This document shows, piece by piece, positions 4,581 to 52,359 of a stretch of 64,000 bases of DNA. The position numbers were made by a program, and so were the translations under genes. The DNA lies in assembly GCA_963514005.1 (NCBI GenBank), contig OY740804.1:19344001-19408000 (forward strand), in the 5' to 3' direction. Below the pieces are notes generated by a model. The model was not told the origin of the DNA. It made no database searches and worked only from the letters and a program-made list of their open reading frames with translations. The stretch is from Raja brachyura (Eukaryota). Each line of letters starts with the position of its first letter. Position 1 is the first letter of the stretch.

Positions 4581-4966
4581 ACTGCAAATTTCTCATGTTT
4601 ATTATATTATTTACAGATTACTATGTTTACATATTCTGTTGTGCTCCTGAAAGTAAGAAGTTCATTGTTCTCTACGGGACCTTTGATAATATCACACTTT
4701 TGACTCTTGGCTGTAAACAGGACACTGTTGGGAGTTTGAGGATGATTGCGGGCAGTGGTCGGGAAGGGAGCACAGCACGTGTGGACTTCCTCCAGCAACA
4801 ACTGTCTGAACTGTCTGAAGGGGGAGGGAAGAGATAAACTGATGGGTGGAAATGAACTGGCATTGACTTAAAGCTCACTGGTGACTGTTGGAGACAGGAT
4901 GTTGGGTTTCGAGGGGTCGACAAGGATCTCCTTTACTCATCTTTCTTCTTTCTGCCCCAACCTCAG

Positions 4967-5245
4967 AGCCCGTGGCAGGAACACAGATCGAGGCTGACAT
5001 CACCGAGATCTGCAACTTCACCCTGACCTGCTCCGTAACCTCCGGTGGCCCCATCAGCTTCACGTGGTGGAGGGAAGCTTTGGGAAACGACAACACCCGT
5101 CACCTCGAGGGGCACGGAAATACAACACATGTTTATCAGACAGCAGAGGTCGGGGACGTTGTGTACAGGTGTGAGGCCAGTAACCCGGCCAGTGAGGGCA
5201 CGGCAGAGATCCAGCTGAAGGATATCTGTAACCGGACCACATTTG
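4967..5245 (+). CDS. Gene A: IgC2 exon
   Basis: Acceptor ctttcttctttctgccccaacctcag|ag and donor ttt g|gtgagt, 279 nt, phase 1/1. EPVAGTQI...CNFTLTCSVTSGGPISFTWWRE...YRCEASNPASEGTAEIQLKDICN has the four-cysteine C2 pattern and the CxASNPxS motif typical of SLAM/CD2 domain 2. Confidence 0.92.
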
Positions 5246-5555
5246 GTGAGTGTCAAAGTGATGATCCCAGGTTATTGGGAGGACAGTAATGTGTTTGTTC
5301 ATTGGGAGAGTGTATTGGGAGTGTGGGATGGAACAGTGTGGAGGGAGCTACACTCTATATTTAATCCATGCCTCAGGAGTGTGTGGAATTATGGCATAGA
5401 GGCACTAGGCCACATCTAATCCATGCCTTGGAAGGGATTTAATAAATAATTGAACATTATTCTGTTCCCAAACCTTTCAACGCCATCTTTTTAAGCCACC
5501 GCTGAGGTTGAAGTGTTACCTCTGCCCAGAATGCACTTCAGCTTTGTGGATTCAT

Positions 5556-7559: not shown

Positions 7560-10500
7560 GCACAGCTATAAGGGTAAAAAATACCCTAATGGGAGTTATT
7601 TATAGGTTCCCAAGATAGCCAGGATTTAGGGTCAAGTTACATCAGGCAATAAATGTGGCTTGTAAAAAAGGCAATGCTGTGGTCATCGGAGATTTCAATA
7701 TGCAGATTGACTGGGGAAACCAGGTTGGTATTGGACCCCAAGAAATCAAATTTGTAGAGTGCCTACAAGGTGGATTTTTAGCAGCTTGTAGTGGAGCCTA
7801 CCAGGGAAAAGGCAATTTTGGATTTAGCGTTATGGAATGAACCAGATATGATAACGGGAAATCAAGGTAAAGCAACCAATTGGAGGTAGCAACCACAACA
7901 TGATAAGTTTTAATCTGCAATTTGAGAGGGAGAAGATGAAATTGGGTGTGTCAGTATTGCAGCTGGGCAAAGAGGACTCATGAGGCGTGAGGGAGGAGCT
8001 GGCCAAAGTTGACGGGAAAGGGACCCAAGGAGGGATGACGGTGGAACAGCAATGGCAGGATTTTCTGCAAATAATCCGGAAGATGCAGGATTTTTTCATT
8101 CCAAACAGGAAGAAAGATTCTAGGGGGAGAAAGAGGCAAACGTGGCAGACAAGGGAAGTCAAGGACAGTATAAAACCAAAAGAGAAGGCGTATAACATTG
8201 CAAAGATTAGTGGGAAGCCAGAGGATTGGGAAGCTTCTAAAAAGCAACGGAGGGTAACTAAAAAACCAAAACGGGGTGAAAAGATGAAATACGAAGGTAA
8301 GCTACCCAATAATTTAAAAGAGTTTCCTCAGTTACATAAAGAGTTAGGAAGAGGCTAGAGTGGACGTTGTAGAATGATGCAGGAGAAGTGATAATGGGGA
8401 ATAAAGAAATGACAGAGTTGAATAACTTTTTTGCATTAGACTTCACAGGGCAAGACACCAGCAACGTGCCAGAAATTCAAAAAGGGTAGAGGTTAGTGGA
8501 GTGGCTATTACCAGGGAAAAGGTCAGTTTTCCAGGCCCCCATCTCCCTCATCTTCACCATGGATGTCCAGTCACTCTAAACCTCCATCCCCTACCAGGAG
8601 GGTCTTAAAGCCTTCCATTTCTTCTTCGACCGCAGAACCAACCAATCCTTGTCTACCAATGCTCTCCTCCACCTAGTGGAGCTGGTCCTCAACAACTTTT
8701 CCTTTGACTCCTCCCATTTTCTCCAAAACCAAGGCGTAGCTATGGGTACATGCATGGCCCCCAGCTATGCCTGCATCCTTGTAAGGTACATCGAACAATC
8801 CTTGTTCAAGGCATACCCTGGCAATATCCCCGAAGTCTACCTCCGGTACATTGACGATTGCATTGGTGCTACCTCCTGCACCCATGCAGAACTCACTGAC
8901 TTCATCCATTTCATAACTAACTTCTATCCGGCACTCAGGTTCACCTGGACCATTTCCGACATCTCCCTACCATTTCTAGACCTCACTATCTCCATCACAG
9001 GTAACAGACTACTGACTGACATCTGCCACAAACCCACTGACTCCCATGGCTATCTGGATTACACTTCTTCCCACCCTGCTTCCTGTAAGGACTCTATCCC
9101 CTACTCCCAATTCCTCGGGCTATGCCGCATCTGCACCCAGGATGAGGTGTTCCAAACCAGTGCATCGTAGATGTCCTTATTCTTTAGGGAATGGTGGTTC
9201 CCCTCTCCAACGATAGATGAGGTTCTCACCAGGATCTCTTCCATATCCAGCAGCTCCGCTCTCAATCAGCCCACTGTCTCCACCTCTTCTTTTCCTCTTC
9301 CCCCCCCCCCTCCCCCCATCAGTCTGAAGAAGGGTCTCGACCTAAAACATCACCTATTCCTTCGCCCCATAGATGCTGCCTCACCCGTTGAGTTTCTTCA
9401 GCTGAAAGGGCTGAAGGTGGATAAGTTACCTGGGCTGGATGGTACTAAGAGAGATGGCTTTAGAGATTGTGGAGGCACTGATGGTGATTTTTCAGAAATC
9501 TCAGGAGTGGTCCCAGATGACTGAAAAATTACCAATATTACCACGCTGCACAAAAAGGGAGCAAGGCAGAATAATGGGAACTACCGGCCGGTTAGTCTGA
9601 CTTTGGTGGTTGGTAAAATTTTAGAGACCATTATAAAGGATGAGGTTAGAGGTTCACGATAAAATAAGCTGATGTCAGCATGACTTTGTGAAGGGGAAGT
9701 CTTGCTAGACCAATTTGTTGGAAATCTTTGAAGAAGTAAATAGCAGGACGGACAAAGGTGTCAGTAGAAGGTGTTTACTTGGATTTTCAGAAAGCCTTTG
9801 ATAAGATGCCACACGTTAGGCAGCTTAGGAAGATGAGAGTCCCCGGTATCAAAGGGCAGATACCAGCATGGATAGCAGGTTGGCTGAATGGCAGAAGACA
9901 AAGAGTGGCAATAAAGGGGGCTTTTTCTGGTTGGCTGCCAGTCACTAGTCGAGTTCTGCAAGGGTCGGGACAGGAGGTCGCTACTATTCACGTTGTATAT
10001 TAATGATTTGGATGACGGGAAAGTTTGTCAATGATATGAAAGTAGGTAGAGGCACAAGTAGTGTTGAGAAAGCAGGGACTCTGCAGAAGGACTTAGACAG
10101 GTTGGGAGAGTGAGCAAAGAAATGGCAGATGGAATATAGTGTAGCAAAGAGTGGAGTCATGCATTTTGGTCGTAGGAATAAAGGGTAGACTATTTTCTCA
10201 ATGGGGTGAGAATCCACAAATCGGAGGTGCAAAGGGACTTGGGAGTGCTGGTGCAGGATTCCCAAAAAATTAATCTGCAAGTTGAATCGGGAGTAAAGAA
10301 AGCAAACTCAATGCTAGCATTTAGTTCAAGAGGGCTTGTGTACAAAAACAGTGATGTAATGTTGAGGCTCCATCAGGCGCTGGTCAGGCCGCCTTTGGAA
10401 TATTGTGAGCAATTTTGGGCACATTATCTGAGGAAGAATGTGCTGGCTCTGGAGGCGGTCCAAAGAAGGTTTACAAGAATGATCCCAGGAATGAGTAGGT

Positions 10501-14105: not shown

Positions 14106-14225
14106 GTACAGTTAATAAAACATTGATACCGGTCGTTGTCAGTGTGAGCGTTGTGGTCCTTGTCGTTGTGGTCTCTGCCATTGTGATTCGCATCAAACGC
14201 CATTCTAGAAGGGACAGGCCAGCAG
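14106..14225 (+). CDS. Gene A: transmembrane exon (uncharged TM)
   Basis: Acceptor ttttctcatctccag|gt, phase 1. GTVNKTLIPVVVSVSVVVLVVVVSAIVIRIKRHSRRDRPA is a hydrophobic span followed by a basic stop-transfer cluster. It ends at a non-canonical donor cag|GCAAGT, phase 1. Confidence 0.85.
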
Positions 14226-14560
14226 GCAAGTGTCTGACCCCTGAGGGCCAAAGGTCACAGCCCAGGGGGGAATATGGGGCGAGGGAGGAGGGGTGGTGTT
14301 CAGGGTACAGAAAAATCTCAACACGCTCTGTAAACCAGGGGACTCAGTCCAGGGGAAAAGGGTGAGGTGGGGTTGGCAGTGCAAGGTACAGGAAAGTGTC
14401 CCACACACACAGCCTCTGGACCAAGGGTTACCGCCCAGGGGAGGAGGTTAGGAGTGGGTGGGGTTCAAGATACAGGAAAGTCACAGCTTGAGAGGTCACA
14501 GCTCTGGACAGGATATAGAAAGGGGGCTGGGGTCAGGGTGAGGGGCCGGGGTGACGGGAA

Positions 14561-15708: not shown

Positions 15709-15929
15709 TTAAGAAAAGGGACAAAGATCCAAGAAATGGTGTGGGAGGGAGAGGGGATGAAGGTTGGAGGACGAGGCTGGGAGGGTAGAAATAGCAGACG
15801 GTGCGTGTAGTTGGCATGGAGGGAGGGAGAGAGAGGGGTGATCGGGAAGCGTCTGGGTGTGACTGGAGTGTGAAGGAGTTGTTGTATGGTGCGGGCAGGT
15901 CCTCATTACTCTCTCTCTCTGCCCCACAG

Positions 15930-16018
15930 ACCCAGGGCCCACAGAGACTATCTACGCACAGGTTGAGCAACCACAGAGACGTCCTGCCAAACGGCAGCCT
16001 CCGGAGGGATACGAGACG
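15930..16018 (+). CDS. Gene A: cytoplasmic exon 1 with ITSM (TIYAQV)
   Basis: Acceptor ctctctctctgccccacag|ac; phase 1 matches the TM exon. Reads DPGPTETIYAQVEQPQRRPAKRQPPEGYET, with donor acg|gtaacg in phase 0. This frame is not in the ORF track. Confidence 0.85.
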
Positions 16019-16124
16019 GTAACGGGACACGTTCTGACCCATGGGAGAGGGGATCAGTGGGACTGAACCCTCAATCCTAGAGACCACTCTCAGTATCCCC
16101 AGCCAGGCCAGGGTTAAAAATGGG

Positions 16125-17159: not shown

Positions 17160-17318
17160 GTTCAGAGACAGGAGGAGAGAATTGAGATCCTTGCCTCCGT
17201 GTATGATACTGTCACCTCTCCTGGGACCTCAGGCATTGGATCACTGGCCACCCCTGGAAACTCCCCGCACTGTGAGCCAGGAGACGTCCATCCTCCACCC
17301 CAGCCCGGGGCCCACTGA
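17160..17318 (+). CDS. Gene A: terminal cytoplasmic exon with SVYDTV motif and stop
   Basis: Acceptor ctctctgctttctctacag|gtt; phase 0 matches the previous exon. VQRQEERIEILASVYDTVTSPGTSGIGSLATPGNSPHCEPGDVHPPPQPGAH* with TGA at 17316-17318. Confidence 0.8.
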   Translation, partial: VQRQEERIEILASVYDTVTSPGTSGIGSLATPGNSPHCEPGDVHPPPQPGAH

Positions 17319-22300: not shown

Positions 22301-22350
22301 TCATTCAGTCTTGTGAGGCCTGTCTGCAGTTCCACTGACAGGGCGGGCGC
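22301..22350 (-). CDS. Gene B: terminal exon, short tyrosine-free cytoplasmic tail
   Basis: Branch-point-like ctgac plus ctctcctatctctctccccacag|gc, similar to the acceptor of gene A cytoplasmic exon 1. Phase 1 gives SARPVSGTADRPHKTE*. Confidence 0.7.
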
Positions 22351-23544: not shown

Positions 23545-24625
23545 GAGGTGGTTTGAGTGGGAAGGGACAAGTTGACCAGGGAGTTGTCGAGGGAACGGTC
23601 TCTGCGGAAAGCAGAAAGGGGTGGAGATTGGGAAGAAGTTGCCAGTAGTGGGATCCCATTGGAGGTAGTGAAAGTGTTGGAGGATTATATGCTGTTAGCA
23701 ACGGCTGGTGGGGTGGAAGGTGAGGACGAGGGTAGCTCTGTCCTTGTTGTGAATGGGGGGAGGGGGAGCAAGAGTGGAGCTGCAGGATATCGGGAGAGCC
23801 TAGTGAGAGCCTCATCTATAATGGAAGAGGGGAACCCCCAATTCCTAAAGAATAAGGACTTCTACGATGATCTAGTATGGAAAACCTCGTACTGGGCGTA
23901 GATTAGCATAGAAACATAAAATGGGTGCAGGAGGAGGCCATTCGGCCCTTTGAATCCAGCACTGCCATTCATTGTGATCATGGCTGATCATCCCCAATCA
24001 ATAACCCGTGCCTTCTTTCTCCCCATATCCCTTGATTCCACTAGCTCCTGGAGCTCTATCTAACTCTCTCTTAAATCCATCCAGTGATTTGGCCTCCACT
24101 GCCCTCTGTGGCAGGGAATTCCCCAAATTCACACCTCTCTGGGTGAAAAAGTTTTTTCTCACCTCAGTCTTAAATGGCCTCCCCTTTATTCTAAGACTGT
24201 GGCCCCTGGTTCTGGACTCGCCCAACATTGGGAATATTTTTCCTGCATCTAGCTTGTCCAGTCCTTTTATAATTGTATATGTGTCTATAAGATCCTCCCT
24301 CATCCTTCTAAACTCCAGTGAACACAAGTCTAGTATTTTCAATCTTTCCTCATATGACAGTCCTGCCATCCCAGGGATCAATCTCTGCACTGCCTCAATC
24401 ACAAGGATGTCCTTCCTCAAATTAGGAGACCAAAACTGTACACAATTAAGGAATTGGGAGTAGATGATAGAGTCTTTACAGGAAGCAGGGTGGGAAGAAG
24501 TATAGTCTCAATAGCTACTGGAGTCCGTAGGTTAGTAATAGATGTCAGTCAATAGTCTATCTCCTGTGATGGCGAGGGCAATATTCAGAAATGGTAGGGA
24601 GATGTCAGAGATGGTCCAAGCGAAC
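23545..24625 (-). mobile_element. Penelope fragment interrupted by a CR1 3' end (23908-24445)
   Basis: Reverse complement matches the Penelope at 8990-9260 (PTDSSSY..., FPSSIIDEALTR, LVLTFHP). The CR1 insert reads KDILVIEAVQR...FFTQRGVNL. Confidence 0.8.
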
Positions 24626-24737
24626 CTGCTCCCTTGCTACAGATACTCCAGCACTTTGTGACCTTTTCTGAACTAACCAGTGCCTGCAGTTCTTTGTTTC
24701 TACATTTTCACTGGAAACACTTAAAAACAACACTCAC

Positions 24738-24836
24738 TGATGATGTGGGTGATGACAATGACTGAGAGGAGAATCAGAAGCAGGACGGCAGCAATCGTGG
24801 CCCTCAGCCAACATCCACAGAGACAGCTTCTCAACC
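24738..24836 (-). CDS. Gene B (or relic third gene): transmembrane exon with intramembrane Arg
   Basis: Acceptor gagtaatcccctctctttcaccag|gg, resembling the gene A TM acceptor gagtaatc...ctccag. Phase 1/1, donor atc a|gtgagt. Reads GLRSCLCGCWLRATIAAVLLLILLSVIVITHII. Linkage to the 44784 exon across about 20 kb is inferred from phase, strand and the absence of another TM exon that I could find. Confidence 0.8.
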
Positions 24837-24964
24837 CTGGTGAAAGAGAGGGGATTACTCATCAGGGAGACTGCACTGGGCCTTGTTCACAAACTCGGCA
24901 AGAACTCGGGGCCCGCACTGTAGACTGACATCAAATAACTGTGACAGCGCTGTCCATTCACACA

Positions 24965-26152
24965 CTCCCAGAGCATGGACTGAACACTGCTGCAGAGTGC
25001 CTTGTCAAGATCAACGGCTCTTTGTTGGCCCCCATTCACTTTGGGAGGGGGTTTGTCAGGGATGTCCCATTTCCGGCCATCTATATTCTATCTGTGTGGA
25101 GCCATTCCTGTGCCTCCTACGGAGGCGGTTGGCAGAACTGGTTTTGCAGGGGCTGGGGTGGAGGTGGTTCTCTTGGCCTACGCCGATGATGTCATTTTGA
25201 TGTTCACCGACCCTGTTGATCTGCGGAGGATGCGTGAGTGCCAGCAGGATTTCTCGGCTGCGTCCTCCGCCAAGATCAACTGGGGGAAGTGTTCTGGTCT
25301 CATGGTGGGTCGGTGGCAGGTGGACTCCCTGCCGGAGGAGATGGCAGGTTTTGTGTGGATGCCCAGTGTACCGTTCCGTGACGCGAAGAGGCGCGTGTTG
25401 TGCAGGCCGCTCCTGCACACTCTCCACGTCCTCGCCCTCGTCGTATGTCCTGACACACCCTGGCGGTCCGTGTTACCACCTGACGGCGGGAGCGGTCCAC
25501 AGTGGAGGTCTCTCTACAAGGGAGTCCTCCCCCTTTACATCGGGGACCTGGGGTGGAGAGTGTTGCACAAAGCCATGTCCTGCAACAGGTACTTGAGCCG
25601 GTTCACAGACTCGTCCGCCGCCTGTCACTTCTGCGGCGAGGAGGAGTCCGTGTACCATTTGTACACGCAGTGTGAGAGGTTGCAGCCCATGTTCCAGTAT
25701 TTGAAGGGGCTGCTCCTCAGGTATTGGCTCCATTTTAGTTGGACGCTCCTGACTTTTGGGCACCTGGTACAGAGGGGGGAGAGTCGGGAGGAGGGAGGGG
25801 CGTCTCCCTGTCGGTCTGCTCCTGGGCCTAGCCAAGATGGCCATTCGCGGGTCCAGGCAGCGGGCAGTCAATGGCCGCACCGGGCTTGACTGCCTGCCCC
25901 TTTTCCGGGGTTACGTCCGTGCCCGTGTGTCCCTGGAGAGGGAACATGCGGTGTCGACAGGGACGCTGGAAGCCTTCCGTGAAAGCTGGTCACCGTGGGA
26001 GGTCGATTGGATTATAGACAAGGATGGCAGGTTTTTAATTTGAATTTTTGTCTTGTTTGTAAACTGCCGATACAGGCAGTTTTTGATATGAATGCTATAC
26101 TACTTTGTATGTTAATTTTGTTTTTGGAATAAAGTATTTGTAAAAAAAAAAA
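24965..26152 (+). mobile_element. Tx1/L1-clade non-LTR retrotransposon, internally deleted 3' part with polyA
   Basis: GVCQGCPISGHLYSICVEPFL, LAYADDV, DLGWRVLH and CHFCGEEESVYHLYTQC (C-terminal zinc finger); aataaa followed by an A-tail at about 26128-26152. Confidence 0.88.
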
Positions 26153-26548
26153 GCATTGACAGACACTGTGTGAGGCTCCCTCTACATTGACCCATCACAC
26201 AGTCCCAGAACATGGATCGACACAGAGTGAAGCTCTCAAGGTCGGATACAGACTGGCACTGCTCCGATGGCTGAGAGTTTTTAAATAGCTTTTGAAAGGT
26301 TTTCGTCAAAGGAAGAGGGACAGAAGCAATGAGATTTCAAGGTTAGACATAACGTCGGACTGCAAGGACTTTTCCTTTCAAAGGATTTCTCCATTTAGCG
26401 AGGAATTCCGGCGCTTTTCTGGAGTGCCGTGGTAGCAGCAGTGGCTGGTGAATTGCCAACTGTACCTGGAGACTGGGAGTCGAATAAAAAAGCGGTGTTT
26501 GTGGTTTCTGGCATCGTAACCCTGCTCCCAGACCGTTTTGCCCAGACC

Positions 26549-27040
26549 AGGTCACGGAGCTGGTCAGATTGAAGTTGCAGATATCAGTGATGTTCTGTGG
26601 CCTGATCTGTGTTCCTGACACTGGCTCTGAGGAGATACTTGTAAACCCCTTGATACCCAATAACCCGTCTCCAACAGCCACGAGCCACGAATGAGCCGAT
26701 CCCAGTTCATTTCCACCCACTAGTTTAATTCTTCCCTCCCCATTCAGTTCAGCCAGTTGTTGCTGGAGGAAGTCTACACGTGCGCTGCGCCTCCTTCCCG
26801 ACTACTGCCCGCACTCATCCACAAACTCTACACTGTGTCCTGTTTGTGGCTCTGTATCCTGGGAATTCTCTCCAGTTCCATGTCTTTTGTCACTCATTAA
26901 AAACCTGAGGGTGACCCAGCTCAGACCGGCCCTGAAACTGGCCAACAGTGGCAGCCCTGGGACTGTGATGGGCACAGACCCAGACTGGGTAGCGTGCTGT
27001 GTTCCAGAGTGAATCCAGCACATGCAGCTCCTGGGTCACA
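26549..27040 (-). pseudogene. Relic of a third SLAM-like copy: truncated IgC2 exon (26626-26549) plus homologous upstream intron
   Basis: Reads EPVSGTQIRPQNITDICNFNLTSSVT (B-strand Cys changed to Ser), then homology is lost. 26630-27040 aligns with the gene B intron 45065-45590 and partly with gene A 4720-4966, but the polypyrimidine tract is deleted. Confidence 0.85.
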
Positions 27041-43500: not shown

Positions 43501-44783
43501 AAACCACTGAATGGTCCACCCATAAGCCAGGTATAATCCTGATCTTCCAATCTACCACATTGCCAACATTGGACTTTTTCTTTGAAAATGCTGCAAAAAT
43601 ATATTCTGCATTCTGGTATTTTTCTTTTTGCTTGTGTATAGCTTGATAGTAGTTATGTATGTTTAAGAAGGAACTGCAGATGCTGGAAAATCGAAGGTAG
43701 ACAAAAATGCTGGAGAATCTCAGCGGTGAGGCAGCATTTATGGAGCGAAAGAAATAGGCAATGTTTCGGGTCGAAACCCTTCTTCAGTCTGAACATGTTA
43801 CCCACATTATTCTACATTTGTTAGATCCTTGCCCGCTCACTTATCTTGCCTTATTATCCTTTAATAATTACCTTATGTCCCCTTCATAACTTACTTTCCT
43901 ACGTTTTCGGCCTTTTACACGAGTCATGTTAAAATTCATATACTAGTGGAGGCTCCAGAACGAGCCCTCTGGCAATATTATATGTTGCTCATTTATGCCT
44001 ACTCTGTTTCCTGCTATCCTGCCAGTCCTCTGTTCATTCCAACACAAATCTTGCTGCACTACAAGCTTTTATTTTCTTCAATAACGTTTGATGGAACATC
44101 TCCATCAAATGCCTTGTGGAAATCTAATAACAGTGCACCTTCATTAGTTTCTGCTCCTTCTTGTTTGTAACAAAGTGCCCAGACACATCTCCTGCCTCAG
44201 TGACTCTCTCTGGAGCTAACTTAGTTCGCATAGATTCCATTTGCAATTTCACTTTTTGTATTTAGGACCCACCGAAGCTTGCAGATCTGTTCAGCATGAT
44301 GTTGAATAAAGGTTTGGAATCCTACAGTTCCAGCATGGACTTTGAGACTTTTGCCTTCCATCACAGTGAGGAGGTGCCTGGTAGACTCACTGCGGTGGAT
44401 GTTAAACGGTGTTATCTGTGTGTTTTGTTATTTTATTCTATGTTATGACTGCAAGGTATACAATTTCGTTCAGACTGAAATGTCTGAATGACAATAAAGG
44501 ATTTATTACTTTACATCACCATCTCCCAGCCAGCACCACCATCGCCTCTGTTATGTGTGTCTCTCTGTCGCTATCATTGGTATTCTCTCTGTATTTCCGA
44601 TTCCAACTTTCTGTCATATAAAATACATTTGATTTCTAACTTTTCCAATTTCTGACATAAAATCATTGACCTGGAATGTTGTTTATCTTTCTCTCATATC
44701 ATTGGCTGTTGAACCTTCGGAGTATTTCCAATTTTATCTGTTTTTATTACACATTTCTAATATCAGCAGTGTGTTTCACTCAC

Positions 44784-45062
44784 CAGGTGTGGCCTGTTTG
44801 CAGTTGTCCATCAACCAGATCTGTGCCGTGCCCTCACTGACCAGGTTCCTGGCCTCACACCTGTACTCAACGTCCCCGACCTCTGCTGTGTGATGAACCT
44901 CTATCGTCTCTCCGTGTCGCAGGGGGTGATGGGTGCCGTCCTTTCCCAGAGGTTTTCCCCACCACCACCTGAAGCTGGTGGAGTCACCAGAGGTCACGGA
45001 GCAGGTCAGGGTGCAGTTGCCGGCGATGTTCTGAATCTTAATCTGTGTTCCTGCCACGGGCT
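44784..45062 (-). CDS. Gene B: IgC2 exon
   Basis: Acceptor ctttcttctctctgccccaacctcag|ag and donor cct g|gtgagt, 279 nt. EPVAGTQIKIQNIAGNCTLTCSVTSGDSTSFRWWW...YRCEARNLVSEGTAQIWLMDNCKQATP, four Cys. Confidence 0.9.
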
Positions 45063-46249
45063 CTGAGGTTGGGGCAGAGAGAAGAAAGATGAGTAAAGGA
45101 GATCCTTGTGGACCCCACGATACCCAACAGCCACAAGTGAACAATCCCAGCTCATTTCCACCCACCAGTTTAACTCTTCTCTCCCCCCCCCCCCCACTTC
45201 AGTTCAGCGAGTTGTTGCTGTACGAAGTCCACATGTGATGCGCCCCCTTCCCGACTACTGCCCGCAATCATCCACCAACTCTCCACCATGTCCTGATTAT
45301 GGCCCTGTATCATGTGATAGGAGTAGAATTAAACCATTTGGCCCATCAAATCTACTCCGCCATTCAATCATGGATGATTGAACCTGGGGATTCTATCCAG
45401 ATGCAGGGTTTTTTTTTCACTTATGCAAATGGTCCCCGTGTCCCTTATGCACCCGAGTGTGACCCAGCCCAGGCCTGTCCAGAACCTGGTCCAAGAGAGT
45501 CAACCCTGGGACTGTGGTGGGCACTGACCCAGACTGGGATAGCGTGCCATGTTCCAGAGTGAATCCAGCACCATGCAGATCCTGGGTCACATGGCCTCTC
45601 TCCCACAGAGACTGAAACAGCTCACAAATCGGGGGTATAAATAGCGAGTTATTCCCAGTCTTGTGATGGGACACATTCTGAGAGGGGAACCAAGGAGTCA
45701 GAATGGAGAAAATGTCACAAGGGACAGAGCGGAGATCTGGAGCTGCAGAGTCACCCTCACTGAAAGCAGATACATGGGTAGAAAGGGCAGGGAAATCTCC
45801 TGATCACTGCCCCCCATCCTCAGCGGATGAACTAGATCTCCCCCATGTTGGACCACACTTAGAAAATGTCCTGAGACCAGCAAAGGCCAGAATGTCCTCT
45901 AGGTGGGGATTTCAATGTCCAACATGGGAGTGGGTTGGTAGCACCTCCACAGACTGAGCCGCCGACTCCTGACGGACAGACGGGCCAGAGTGGGCTGAGC
46001 AGGGGTAATCTGGCCTGACCTGGCCATCCCCAGGCTACCAGTGGCAGGTGCATCAGTCCCTGACACTAATGATGAGAGTTACCACTGTACAGTCCTTGTG
46101 GAGACAAGTCTGGTCTTCGCACCGAAGGCTCATCCCCATCATATTGTGTGGCACCTACAATTGTGCTCAGTGTGAGAGGCTCAGAAGAGATCATGCAGCT
46201 GACAACTGGGGTCCATATGGTCCTGCGGACAACAGCAGAACTGTCCACC

Positions 46250-48110
46250 ACGCAGTCTGTAACCTCATGGTTCACGCCACCATTCCTGTCACCGAGGGGT
46301 TCAACCCTGGTTCACTGAGGATCGCAGAGGACATGAGGAAGCAGCACCAGGTAGAAATAAACACAACGAGGTGCCAGCCTGGTGAAGCTGCGACACAGGA
46401 CGACATGCGACAACAACAGCCTCAAAAAAAGAGCTGAGGGACCTCGCGGCCTATGGCTCAGGTCACAGTTCTACAGTCCTACTACATCTGGACATGAATA
46501 GTGGTGGACAATTCAATAGCTCATCGAATGCAGCAGCCAAAAAAGCATCCCCATCCTCAGTGATAATGTGACCCAGCACGTGAGTGCTGGAGACAAGGTT
46601 GATCATTTACAACCGTGTTCAGTCAGAGTGCTGGAGTGGATGATCTCTGATCTTCTGAGATCCTACCGTCAAAGAAACCAGTGTCCAGACAATTTAGTTT
46701 ACTCCATGCAAAATCATGTTTATAAGTTATAGGAGCAGAATTAGGCCATTTGGCCCATCAAGTCTAAGCCGCCATCTAATCACAGTTGATCTATCTTTCC
46801 CTCAAACCCATTCTCCTGCCTTCTCCCCATAACCTCCGACACCTGTACTAATCAAGAATATATCAATCTCCACTGTAAAAATATCCATTGACTTTGCCTC
46901 CAAAGCCTCCTGTGACAATTAATTCCACAGATTCATCACCTTAAATAAATTCATCTTCATCTCCTTTCTAAAGGTATTGTATGTCCTTTTATTCCAAGGC
47001 TATGGCCTGTGGTCCTAGACTCAATTATCAATGGAAACATCTTCTCCACATCCAGTCTATCCAGGAAACACAGAGAGCCCCTATACATATCCAGCTCCAG
47101 GCAACATCCCAGCTATAGTACTGAAGACCTGCACTCCTGAAGTCGTGGCATGTCTCCCCAAGTTGTTTTTGCAACATTGGTATCCAGTGACAATGTGGAA
47201 AATTGACATCATCTTTGCAGTTCATAAACAGGATGAATCCAATCAGCTGATCACCTTCCAATTGATCTAGTATTGATCATCAGCAAAGTGAGAGAAGCTA
47301 TTGTTGACACTTTTATCATGCAGCACTCACTCGCCAATAACCTGCTCACTGAAGCTGAAGATCTTATCTGAAGACCTCATCACGGCTTTGGTCCAAGACT
47401 GAAACGAAAAACTGACTTGCAGAGATAAGGCGGAGCTGACTGTCCTCAACATCAACGCATTGTTTAACTGAGTCTGACATTAGGGAGCCCTTGTAAAACT
47501 AAAGTCAATGAACATCCAGGGGATAACACTCTGACGTGGAGTCACCCCTCACACGGAGGAAGATGGTTGTGGTCATTGGAGGCCAGTCAACCCAGCCACA
47601 GGTCATCGCTGCAGGTGTTCCTCAGGGCAGTATCCTGGGCCCAACCAGCTGCTTCATCAATGACCTTCCTGGCATCGCAACGTTTGACTGATGATGGCAC
47701 AATGTTGAACTCAACTGCATGCAGCAGGACCCAGAAAACATTCAAACAGGGGCTGATAAGTGGGAAGTTTGCAACCACGTGATGGAAGTGTCAGCAGGAG
47801 ACAGCCCAGTGCTTGAGACTCAATGATTCTCCCAGCAGCAAGCCCCACATTATCAAAACAATCGAACAGCAACTCAACAATACTAATTACACATACTCTG
47901 TGGCTACTGGAGAAAGTTTGAGGCTGGGTATCCCGTAGGAGTGACTCACTTCCTGACAGCCTGACCTTTCCCCGTCTACAGGACATGTCAGGAGTGTAAG
48001 GGAACACTCTTCCAATACCTGGGTGAGTGCAGCTTCAACATCTCTCGAGAAGTTGCCATCACCTGCAACTGAAGCAGCTGCTTAATCAGATCCCTACCCA
48101 CTACCCTAAA
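46250..48110 (+). mobile_element. Old degraded CR1/L2-like LINE (with a CR1 tail insert at 46720-47065)
   Basis: PGNIPAIVLKTCTPE and AGVPQGSILGP-like remnants with many frameshifts. Confidence 0.6.
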
Positions 48111-48627
48111 TACTCCCACCCTCCGCCAGCCTAAGCACTTCCTCCCCCATCCTAACATCATCCTTCTGCCAATCTAAGCACTTCCACCAAAACCTCAAGC
48201 ACTCCCTCTGTCCAATCCCTAAACATTCCATCCCTCTATCGACCCGAAACGTTGCCCATTTCCTTTGCTCCATAGATGCTGCCTCACCCGCTGAGTTTCT
48301 CCAGCATTTTTGTCATCCTTCCACAAATGTGGGTGGTGTGCATGTAATCCAGAAAATTCACCAGGGAGCCTGGAGGAAATTCCCTTCCCCATGGAGCAGT
48401 GGGAACCGTTGACGGTTCGATGGCCCAGTGACCGGGGATGTGGTGGGCCTGTCCCCCAGCCTGGCACTGCCCTAGTCCCACTACACTGGGACCGGGACCC
48501 CCACTCTGCACATTGGCAGTCAGTGGGGTTCAGTAAACTGGGGAACGCACAGGAACTGCTCTCGCCCATTAATTAGGGAGGTTCAGGAGCCGGTGAAATG
48601 CGGGGCCTCCGCGGCAATCTCACTCAC

Positions 48628-48945
48628 CGTACACCTCCAGTCGGACTCTCGCCGAAGTTTTATCTCCTGAACTTGCAACAAAATCCACCTCGTAATCACC
48701 AGCGTCCTCTCTCCGTAGATCACGGATTTCCAGAGTGAAGTTCCCGCGGTGAAGAGTTACCCGTCCCTTGTAATTGGTGACATAGTATTCAATATTCTCA
48801 TTCGAGTACTTCGCTATCATGGTTCTGGGTGATGGCCGCCTCCACGCAACGCTGGCATTGTCCGGTGCGACTGTGATCCCAGCAGGTAAGGAGACCGAGT
48901 GTCCCCGAGCTCCGGTCACGGTGCCAGTGGCGGCCCCGGTCCCAG
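48628..48945 (-). CDS. Gene B: IgV exon
   Basis: Same acceptor, donor and 318-nt length as the gene A IgV exon. AGTGAATGTVTGARGHSVSLPAG...VAWRR...YKGRVTLHRGNFTLEIRDLRREDAGDYEV...VRLEVY has no cysteine, giving a CD2/SLAM-type V domain. Confidence 0.92.
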
Positions 48946-50641
48946 CTGAGGAGACAAGAGAGGCAGTCAGCAGGAGAGCCCAGTGACTGGGGGAGGAATC
49001 GGACCTGGGAGAATCACACAGCACAGGAGCAGGCCATGCGGCCCATCGTCTGGCTCCCAGCTCTGTGAGAGACCCGGCCCACAGTTCCTACATCACACAG
49101 TGAGCCCACGGGGGGAACAGAGTGAAGACTCTCAGCACCCGGGGCCGAGGAAGGAAGTTGCAGCCGGCAGCCAGATATTGACGGACGGGTCAGGGGGGAA
49201 CAGACACGGCAAATGGGTCTGAAAAAGAAGGGGGATGGGGTGAGTTTGGAGAGAGTGAACATGGTGGAGGAACGGGGTAAATGGGAGGGTGTGAGTAGTA
49301 TGGGGGGGGGGGGGGGGGGGGGAGGAGCAGACCCCTGGAGTGCACTTACACAGATCCCTGAAGGAGGAAGTAAGGACAGGTGGGTGACTGAATACCACAC
49401 AAGCAACGACCAAAAGGTGAGAGCAACACGATCCAGGGAAAATTGGCAAATCGGATGCAAAATTATCTGGGTGATTGGAGGCAGAAGAAATTGGTAGAGG
49501 GTTGGTTTTGTTATTGGAACCCTGTGACCAGTCGTGTACTGCAGGGATTGTTGGGATTCTTACTCCCTGTGTACAATTAAAATGTTTAATTTGTAAATTT
49601 GCAGATGACACAAAAAAATCATTGGTGTCATTGGTAGGAGCATGGTCATAGACTGCAGAATGTACTATTTAGTCTTTGTTACGCTTGATCTAATTGTGTT
49701 GCCACTTTCAGGGAGTTGCGCATTTGGACCCCAAGTTCCCGCAGTATGTCAATGATGTTAAGGGTCTTGCAACGAACAATATACTTTTCCCTTACATTGG
49801 TCCTCCCAAATTGTAACACCTCACCCTTGCTTAGTTAGATCCAACCAGCTGCCATTTATCTGCTCATTTCTGTAGTTGATCTATATTCTGCTGTAATCTT
49901 TGACACCTTCCTCACTGTCTGCAACTCCACCAATATAAAATGTTATATATAATATTAAACACCCAACACAGATCCTTTTGGAACTCCATTGGTCCCAGAC
50001 CTCCAGCCAGAATATAACACACTTCTCCCACAACCTTCTGCCTTCAACGAGCGAGCCAGTTCTGAATCTGAATGACCAAGTCACTATGGATCCCATGAAT
50101 CTTAAATCAGGCCCTTCAGCCCAGTGCTACGAAACTACCTGGCTTCTCACCTCTCAATTCCAAACACCAACCATTTGCTGGTGAAAAGGCTCTTCATTTA
50201 TTGTGTATTCCCAACCTTGTTTTGACTCTCCAAACATCTCACCCCACACCTCAGGAGAAAACTTCATTTCCCTGCCCAGCTGACTGGATTCTCCTCCTCA
50301 GTTCTTCATTCTCCTCCTCATTGTCAATGACACTCAATTGTTGAACCTGCAAATTGACCCCTCTCTCTCTCTGTCTCTGTCTCTCTCTTTTTTCTCTCTC
50401 TCCCTCTCTTCATCTTCCCCCTCCTCCTCTCCCGTTTGCGTGTGTGAGAGGAACTGTCTCTGCTGTGCTGTGCCATTCTGTTATTAGACAGTTCACTTGG
50501 AGTTGGAGTTCATTGCTGTTATCCATCAGAGCTGATGATCTGAATGCCCAGAGCCCTGTAGAAGTCAGAAGCTGCTGTCAGGGTGCAATGACCTGGTTCT
50601 GATTGGGAAGGTGTTTGGTCAAACATTGCATCAAATAGTGG

Positions 50642-50653
50642 CAGGAAGTGGTT
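50642..50653 (+). promoter_or_regulatory. ETS-RUNX-like composite motif in intron 1 of gene B
   Basis: CAGGAAGTGGTT: an ETS core GGAAGT overlapping RUNX-like GTGGTT, in apparently non-TE sequence. Confidence 0.3.
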
Positions 50654-51416
50654 CAGGCACAGAACACTTTGCTGAACAAGAAGTATGTAAAGCGAAAAAT
50701 AGAGCTGGACTGTGGATGTAAAACGAGAGTTGTGGAGTGGGAGGTTGTTGAAGGGAGAGAGGGAGGGAGAGAGATAGCGAGGCACAAATGGCAATATTGT
50801 AGCAGCACCATACGTGGCGAATAAAGAGGAGACATCAGGTTGGTGCAACTGGTTCTTTATTCTGTTGTCACACATATAGTGGGTGCGCTAACTATATGTA
50901 GAGTTGTTGTAGCTGAGCGAGGTTGTGCCCTCGGGCTCAGCTACCGGTAGAAACTCCTGATGGATCTCGTGGTGAGAGAGCTTATGTACCAGGACACTCC
51001 CTCTGCCCATGACGTCGTGTGCCCGCCCTCTCCTGACGAGGGTTCGAGCTTAAGTGGCTGACGCCACAATATGATATTAACTACAGAGAGAGGTTTGTAG
51101 AGATGTCAGGAACCAGCAGAAAGTGACAGAGCTGGAGAAAGAGGCACAGAAATAGGGACAGTGAGAGAAGGAGTGTTTGGATAGAGAGATAAAGAAAGAT
51201 AACATCAGCAGAATGGAAGAGGGGCTGTGAATGACAGAGAGAGGGATGGAATGAGAGGCCAGTGTGTCCCACCTTTATGACAGTGTGGCAGCATTTGGGC
51301 TAGCATAAAGCCAGGAAATGACCACAATGGGTTGAATGGCCTTTATATGCACTGAAAACCTGCACAAGCCTCACACTCATCGATAACCAGAGTTGATCAT
51401 TAATATCTGTACTTAC

Positions 51417-51477
51417 CTACACAGACAGCAATGAGTGATGCACAGAGCAGGGAGGGCATCCTCCTCAAAGAAAACAT
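51417..51477 (-). CDS. Gene B (SLAM/CD2-family receptor, charged TM): leader exon
   Basis: aagATG (A at -3), then MFSLRRMPSLLCASLIAVCV and g|GTAAGT, a perfect phase-1 donor. Joined to the IgV exon it gives the signal peptide ...LLCASLIAVCVAGTGA. Confidence 0.85.
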
Positions 51478-51640
51478 CTTGAAGTGATGTTTCAGCACTG
51501 CGAGATTTATAATAAGAGTGAAAAGATCAGGAACTGACTCCTCCTCAGACCCGCCTGTGATAGGGTAATAGGCAGCATGTTCTGCATGTGACAGATGATA
51601 CATACAGAGCAGAAACACGTTGCACTGACCTCTTCCGTAC
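51478..51640 (-). promoter_or_regulatory. Putative proximal promoter/5'UTR of gene B
   Basis: Lies directly upstream of the leader ATG. TATAAAT on the minus strand at 51511-51505, ETS-like caggaac near 51528, GATA-like tgatag near 51558. Motif matches only. Confidence 0.35.
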
Positions 51641-51809
51641 CAACATTCTGACGTGTTTGCTTTCTCATTTTGTTTTAATTCGAATCTCTATCTCAGTCTC
51701 TATACATCAGTTGCTCTCTCAGTCTCATGGACCCTATTTTTTAACTCTCTACATGTGTGACTCTCTCTACATCGTTGCATGTATCACTCCATACACACAT
51801 CCACGCACA

Positions 51810-52359
51810 GTCCCTCTCCCTCTCCCTCTCCCCCTCCCCCTCCCCCCTCCTTTCTCTCCCCCTCCTTTCTCTCCCCCTCCTTTCTCTCCCCCTCCTTTCT
51901 CTCCCCCTCTTTCTCTCCCCCTCTTTCTCTCCCCCCCTTTCTCTCCTNNNNNNNNNNNNNNNNNNNNNNNNNNNNNNNNNNNNNNNNNNNNNNNNNNNNN
52001 NNNNNNNNNNNNNNNNNNNNNNNNNNNNNNNNNNNNNNNNNNNNNNNNNNNNNNNNNNNNNNNNNNNNNNNNNNNNNNNNNNNNNNNNNNNNNNTCCCCC
52101 TCCTTTCTCTCCCCCTCCTTTCTCTCCCCCTCCTTTCTCTCCCCCCCNNNNNNNNNNNNNNNNNNNNNNNNNNNNNNNNNNNNNNNNNNNNNNNNNNNNN
52201 NNNNNNNNNNNNNNNNNNNNNNNNNNNNNNNNNNNNNNNNNNNNNNNNNNNNNNNNNNNNNNNNNNNNNNNNNNNNNNNNNNNNNNNNNNNNNNNNNNNN
52301 NNNNNNNNNNNNNNNNNNNNNNNNNNNNNNNNNNNNNNNNNNNNNNNNNNNNNNNNNNN
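51810..52359. repeat. 15-nt pyrimidine minisatellite (ctccccctcctttct)n with two assembly gaps (N 51948-52094 and 52148-52359)
   Basis: Seen directly. Confidence 0.95.

Follow-up and report, generated by a model that had tools for sequence, protein, structure and literature searches.

In mammals, SLAM receptors rely on ITSM-bearing tails of their own for signalling. The family also has V-C2 members without an ITSM, among them SLAMF9, SLAMF8 and the GPI-linked CD48, and SLAMF9 carries a Lys near the outer end of its transmembrane (TM) segment. The signalling route of SLAMF9 is described as unclear, with adaptor use suggested, in a section of PMC7078004. Outside this family, FcaRI/CD89, GPVI, LILRA, OSCAR, NKp46 and TARM1 have a type I TM segment with one Arg close to its top and carry no tail motif; CD89 pairs via this Arg according to an extract of PMC13107469, and a passage in PMC6557307 describes NxxR together with an acidic C-terminal end for TM segments of the FcaRI/GPVI/LILRA type. 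FcR-gamma-type TM segments are ascribed to Xenopus SLAM-like receptors in parts of PMC6557307 and PMC4536121, and FcR-gamma dependence was shown for XFL2 (excerpts of PMC2413239 and PMC4536121). As far as these excerpts describe them, the Xenopus CD2/SLAM-like and XFL receptors resemble the skate gene reported here in combining a SLAM-family ectodomain, an outer basic TM residue and a short tail, and in being intermingled with tyrosine-motif relatives. In catfish, a receptor whose TM segment holds a Lys binds FcR-gamma and CD3-zeta-like adaptors, and the TM charge proved dispensable, as stated in a portion of PMC4810170. A search of open-access running text returned no paper on elasmobranch SLAM pairs or on the Cys-x-x-Arg/Lys-x18-His anchor described below.

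The window analysed here is the whole stretch of 64,000 nucleotides at C24:19344001-19408000 of a 2.7 Gb skate genome. It contains gene B, which belongs to a cluster of CD2/SLAM-like genes that we mapped across C24:19.24-19.82 Mb. Judged from its sequence, gene B is a CD2/SLAM-family gene: it has a V domain (Pfam V-set, E 3e-12, plus a weak Receptor_2B4 match) and a C2 domain, each domain on one exon, with phase-1 introns. Among named proteins, its V exon is closest to those of the skates Amblyraja and Rhinoraja (at most 81% identity) and next to those of rays, and the RefSeq names of its relatives, which like all homolog models used here are automatic RefSeq predictions, are mostly SLAM-, Ly-9- or CD48-like. 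Profile A1 matches SLAMF6, CD2, CD48 and CD84 at E values of 4.5e-13 to 1.3e-9, and CEA/CEACAM1 score equally high with the same profile (top match 4.8e-15). The V translation is free of Cys, and the canonical B-F disulfide of V-set domains is thus absent. The exons of gene B and the neighbouring features are as follows.

51417..51477, minus strand: signal-peptide exon of gene B (ATG at 51477; GT donor, phase 1)
48628..48945, minus strand: Ig V-set exon of gene B, CD2/SLAM type (Pfam V-set; 96% amino-acid identity to paralog D)
44784..45062, minus strand: Ig C2 exon of gene B (AG/GT, phase 1; 90% amino-acid identity to paralog D)
43502..51827, minus strand: block derived from paralog D by copying or conversion (signal, V and C2 exons with introns; blastn pieces 85.5-96.2% identical to C24:19528075-19514827)
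26540..26626 (26540 approximate), minus strand: broken second C2 exon (tblastn; acceptor compared with those of intact C2 exons)
24980..26170 (borders approximate), plus strand: LINE-like retroelement fragment between the broken C2 exon and the TM exon (RT-like frames 24844-25197 and 24984-25886, with an RT motif)
24738..24836, minus strand: TM exon (Cys at -7, -5 and -3, Arg(0), 18 uncharged residues, His(+19))
22301..22350, minus strand: last coding exon, encoding a short tyrosine-free cytoplasmic tail (AG acceptor; stop at 22303-22301)

Joined together, the signal, V, C2, TM and tail exons of gene B give a stop-free, in-phase model of 268 aa with AG/GT at four of four introns. The signal exon is identical to that of paralog D at all 60 of the 60 nt compared, and the 15 codons of the tail exon (22350-22301) encode the same residues as Amblyraja P0024 at 15 of 15 positions. 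The D-derived block ends about 1 kb short of the TM exon of D; gene B thus appears to be a D-type ectodomain set ahead of an older anchor. The step on which the model depends most is the C2-to-TM intron, modelled at 20 kb compared with 230 bp in gene C (see below); on the modelling, this splice is probably made. A scan of all phase-1 acceptors gave 12 hydrophobic candidates in the window, and 24836-24738 is the sole one on the minus strand between the C2 exon of gene B and position 8257; acceptor scan and cluster mapping together yielded no competing TM exon between the C2 and TM exons of gene B.

The long intron, together with the broken C2 exon and the retroelement directly upstream of the TM exon, also fits a different view, in which the TM and tail exons are remains of a dead gene whose V exon has been lost and whose C2 exon has been broken, the signal-V-C2 exons are a separate truncated copy of gene D, and the receptor class works only via gene C. 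The end of the D-derived block before the TM exon of D agrees with this, as does Amblyraja P0020, a TM-less model of the same type. A further point in its favour is an orphan third copy of the TM exon nearby (C24:19430935-19431033, L002), which was duplicated together with the adjoining retroelement and has 5 amino-acid changes, located in the inner half of the helix; a search for its tail exon found none. The broken C2 exon retains about 30 codons and has lost the B-strand Cys and the polypyrimidine tract. Since contigs of three public runs (X1, X2 and X4) cover it unbroken, the lesion is not an assembly slip. The loss of the polypyrimidine tract favours skipping of this exon, which argues for the five-exon model and against a dead gene, and the same can be said of the five stop-free, in-phase exons with canonical borders and of the identical tail in Amblyraja. 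Amblyraja P0019 shows the same order of parts: it too joins a D-type signal-V-C2 stretch to the same anchor, with the second C2 exon intact, this being an automatic RefSeq prediction that may be a fusion. Public-run contigs over 24600-26900 (four runs), which inform on the arrangement of the DNA only, pass through the exon borders, and a splice joint is absent among the matches listed; the retroelement fragment has very high depth in these contigs. Taken together, we regard a dead anchor behind a truncated copy of gene D as improbable.

The TM exon itself (24836-24738) comprises 99 nt, is in phase 1 at both ends and is bordered by an AG acceptor with a pyrimidine-rich tract and by a GT donor. 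A preliminary description of this DNA had placed an Arg codon (AGG) at 24804-24802 and a His codon (CAC) at 24747-24745 of the minus strand, and both are there; reading the codons also confirmed the proposed TM segment, with 18 uncharged residues between the two. To this we add the Cys residues at -7, -5 and -3 before the Arg and the tail exon at 22350-22301, which that description did not contain. The TM exon and the tail were found in Amblyraja, Rhinoraja, Hemitrygon, Hypanus, two Mobula species and Pristis, and since the same exon is present in the RefSeq models of these 7 other batoid species, it is not a product of chance. A profile search over 1.84 billion representatives extended the set of homologs to basking-shark P0072 and turtle P0155, which have the same spacing with Lys in place of Arg. 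We aligned 14 rows, namely 3 exons from this genome, 9 batoid proteins, the shark and the turtle, dropping Rhinoraja P0207, which has no TM exon. Three positions of the exon stand out in this alignment.

24811..24813, minus strand: Cys(-3), in the place of the Asn of NxxR (14 of 14 motif rows)
24802..24804, minus strand: Arg(0), at the outer end of the TM helix (Arg in 12 of 14 rows, Lys in 2)
24745..24747, minus strand: His(+19), at the inner end of the TM helix (14 of 14 rows)

All 14 rows have Cys(-3), a basic residue at 0, Leu(+8) and His(+19), counts that are partly circular because three of these residues define the pattern. As Arg is found in 12 of 12 batoid rows and Lys in the shark and the turtle, it is the charge rather than the residue that is kept. 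The full pattern, Cys-x-x-Arg/Lys-x18-His, occurs in 10 of 93 TM-bearing matches, and the basic-His spacing without the Cys in none of the 93; SLAM matches with neutral TM segments do not have it. For a pattern chosen, as this one was, after seeing the data, simulated TM segments give a frequency of 1 in 200,000 per protein, compared with 2 of 82 matches outside the 8 named batoid rows. Leu(+8), Leu(+11) and His(+19) are highly conserved, and the conserved positions lean to one face of the helix (moment at 30 degrees, shuffle p 0.033), a signal lost on leaving out the three residues that define the pattern (p 0.18). In 5 of 14 rows another Arg occupies -2, and gene C has a Pro at -1. Searches with the TM exon gave 0 matches at E 10 in the PDB and 0 Pfam families; with TM exon and tail combined, the best ESM Atlas score was 0.80, which is chance level, and a word-index search returned only 3 batoid proteins among 27 candidates. 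The teleost (characiform) protein P0156 was scored as a motif miss, having an Arg with His at +18. Its stalk bears Cys, its TM segment contains an Arg and ends on the inner side in Asp-His, and the spacing departs from that of the skate anchor by one residue; this TM segment is possibly a related anchor.

Beyond the Arg and the His, it had been suggested that without the last splice the protein might end in a CD48-like GPI signal. Read-through of the donor at 24737 does give a hydrophobic end, with a stop five codons later at 24723-24721. The suggestion turned out to be weak: the read-through ends of the other two copies in this genome are long and different, a good small-residue cleavage site is absent by the general rules for such sites, and the donor and the tail exon are conserved in the 7 other species. 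A GPI-anchored form is very unlikely, because the conserved next exon supplies a short tyrosine-free tail. The TM exon would thus serve as the membrane anchor of a short-tailed CD2/SLAM-family protein.

Does this anchor couple to an adaptor? The preliminary description had taken the TM segment for an Arg-bearing anchor of the FcaRI/GPVI kind, with the His as part of the signature. In favour of adaptor coupling are the conservation of the basic charge, the tyrosine-free tail, the adaptor exons in the genome and, as in activating members of receptor pairs, a tyrosine-motif twin. Two features differ from the FcaRI/GPVI kind: Cys stands at the Asn position, and the acidic residue at the C-terminal end of the TM segment is absent, His(+19) being followed by hydrophobic or small residues. 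For these two reasons we do not class it as an NxxR anchor. The His is not a known element of the FcaRI/GPVI-type signature. Compared with the FcaRI/GPVI group, which is also a different Ig family, the skate anchor adds the Cys cluster, the His and a longer hydrophobic run after the Arg. It likewise differs from the Xenopus receptors, which have NxxR rather than Cys-x-x-Arg/Lys...His, and its tail is on a separate exon, whereas TM1 and tail of XFL share one exon according to part of PMC2413239.

The position of the Arg relative to the membrane bears directly on this question. With an insertion scale under a home-made weighting, the Arg falls between -2 and +3 relative to the start of the helix in the best hydrophobic windows, which is the membrane edge, and the best 19- and 21-residue windows begin after it; the 18 uncharged residues and His-Ile-Ile suffice to cross the bilayer with the Arg left out. 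In the adaptor 16 residues separate the Asp from the first inner basic residue; in the anchor the distance from the Arg is 19 to the His and 24 to the next Arg. With a spacing of 19 versus 16 the Arg may sit too high to meet the adaptor Asp. The second Arg at -2 and the Pro at -1 of gene C would fit either an interface or a helix start. When the TM exon was modelled together with a pair of FcR-gamma TM chains, without alignments, the complex scored 0.02 against a mark of 0.34, which speaks neither for nor against pairing.

The position of the Arg is in line with the main rival to adaptor coupling, in which gene B encodes a membrane-anchored, non-signalling decoy or ligand that uses no ITAM adaptor: the Arg would be an edge anchor residue, the Cys cluster would form disulfide dimers, and the shared V domain would compete with the tailed twin or act as its ligand. 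The Arg at the helix edge and the second Arg in 5 of 14 rows both suit such a protein, and RefSeq isoforms of Hypanus and Mobula birostris in which the TM exon is skipped point the same way (alternative isoforms skipping the TM or the C2 exon are P0040, P0032 and P0076). A passage of PMC7078004 adds that tail-less SLAMF9 may act simply as a ligand. Anchoring alone, on the other hand, leaves unexplained why the Cys(-3)/basic(0)/His(+19) spacing is fixed from sharks to turtle and why SLAM matches with a neutral TM do not have it. On balance, we consider a decoy or ligand unlikely, though a reading to be taken seriously.

Exons of candidate adaptors are present in the genome. Pfam TCR_zetazeta matches two exons, both of which keep the TM Asp. 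One is an FcR-gamma TM exon at C24:19852044 (L037), on the same contig as the SLAM cluster and 483 kb from the TM exon of gene B, with an ITAM-like exon 2.5 kb downstream; its best PDB matches are FcR-gamma chains, and of its seven protein matches four are so named and three are unnamed or uncharacterised. The other is a CD3-zeta TM exon at C12:63077436 (L036), on another contig. A DAP10 family search of the genome gave two weak matches, which we read as noise, and no credible DAP10 match. The latter result weighs against pairing through the Cys-Arg-Leu-His face with some other membrane partner, be it DAP10/DAP12, another SLAM chain or a further protein, as does the mid-helix position of the basic residue in DAP10/DAP12 partners (an extract of PMC13107469). 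Such a partner would fit the conservation of His(+19), Leu(+8) and Leu(+11), which lie outside the reported NxxR signature, and for the exchange of Arg for Lys in shark and turtle; we nevertheless think it quite improbable.

Coupling of the Arg to FcR-gamma or CD3-zeta is plausible, and we put at about an even chance the reading that gene B is the adaptor-coupled activating member of a paired SLAM receptor, acting via one of these two chains. In the proposed mechanism the 20-kb C2-to-TM splice would be made with the broken C2 exon skipped, the outer Arg would reach the Asp pair of an FcR-gamma (or CD3-zeta) dimer, and pairing of these charges would transmit the signal. A much bolder extension, to which we assign a low probability, is that Cys-x-x-Arg/Lys-x18-His is an ancient SLAM adaptor-coupling anchor as old as jawed vertebrates, and in batoids a fixed activating chassis for ectodomains repeatedly copied from ITSM receptors. 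On this view the invariant Cys, at -3 from the Arg, would be level with the interchain Cys of FcR-gamma, at -4 from the Asp, and might link receptor and adaptor covalently.

The assignment of gene B to a receptor pair rests on its relation to gene D (C24:19527722-19512040), an intact 360-aa model with a neutral TM segment and a tail with ITSM-like motifs that contains three tyrosines, one of them in a T-x-Y-x-x-V context. The two V exons lie about 130 kb apart and differ by four base changes, each of which alters an amino acid in the stretch of residues 37-55, a number insufficient to test for selection. The introns are 94-98% alike as well, which indicates that the whole block was copied in this genome and means that the likeness of B and D can be explained by recent block duplication without selection. 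The end of the gene D TM exon (C24:19513757) appears to use a GC donor. The same arrangement recurs in other batoids: for 7 of 11 anchor-bearing receptors the nearest V domain is that of a tyrosine-motif receptor of the same species, with identities of 96% in this skate, 98% in Amblyraja, 95% in Hemitrygon, 90% in Mobula hypostoma, 88% in Rhinoraja (tied with a TM-less model), 84% in Hypanus and 73% in Pristis. For the remaining four, namely gene C of this genome, P0045, P0024 and P0032, a same-species twin is absent among the rows. A 38-row V-domain tree, from which P0042 was left out because the V-domain pattern missed it, groups all seven pairs, six of them with starred support; Rhinoraja appears as a four-member same-species clade, and the Mobula hypostoma pair (93/87) is unstarred. 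A single clade of the 9 Arg-type V domains was rejected (p-AU 3e-54).

An anchor that is conserved while its ectodomains match by species is what gene conversion or repeated duplication would be expected to produce in paired receptors. Siglec pairs are paired receptors under concerted evolution. CEACAM1 and CEACAM3 are alike in this respect, in that the ligand-binding domain is reportedly closer within a species than between orthologs and the membrane and tail parts differ; they are unlike the skate pair in that the motif-less skate member has no ITAM of its own. Ectodomains may have been copied repeatedly, species by species, from a tailed gene onto the conserved anchor. B and D might then bind one ligand with different outputs, perhaps in defence against microbes that exploit the tailed twin. 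Opposite outputs are not implied, because ITSM tails can activate as well as inhibit.

Coupling of this anchor to FcR-gamma, if real, would mean that SLAM receptors which borrow an adaptor, and arms races between paired receptors, go back to cartilaginous fish, and that the borrowing there used an anchor distinct from NxxR. If, on the bolder view above, tail-less tetrapod SLAM members such as SLAMF9 derive from this anchor, their mode of signalling would be accounted for. The B/D pair offers a compact test case, with four V-domain differences and a linked candidate adaptor gene.

Several further SLAM-like genes were noted in and around the window. Gene C (C24:19454472-19447108) is intact and compact, encodes 268 aa and has the same anchor, with the Arg kept and Pro at -1; it is the ortholog of Rhinoraja P0045, and none of the V exons found is a close twin of its own. 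Gene A encodes a SLAM-like receptor whose TM segment is neutral and whose tail is of the tyrosine-motif type; it and gene B lie tail to tail, and the signal exon of gene A falls immediately to the left of the window.

1223-1540, 4966-5247, ~14106-14227, 15923-16021 and 17160-17315, plus strand: exons of gene A

At C24:19707502-19712909 there is a SLAM-like gene whose V domain is 82% identical to that of gene B and for which a C2 match is absent; it has a Thr-rich stalk and an in-frame stop in the last tyrosine-motif exon. The Ly-9-like ray proteins P0001-P0007, P0012 and P0014, with repeated V-type domains, neutral TM segments and tails without a tyrosine motif, represent a further tail-less SLAM-like class. 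Finally, the 3' half of the SLAM V exon (window 48807-48512), often with the start of the next intron, recurs at about 28 scattered places in the genome as copies of 209-364 bp that are 77-86% identical. All eight copies that were checked (L083-L090, on C6, C5 twice, C37, C11, C1421, C16 and C24) were confirmed, and they share flanking repeat sequence with L083, which suggests that these fragments belong to a mobile element that captured part of a gene.
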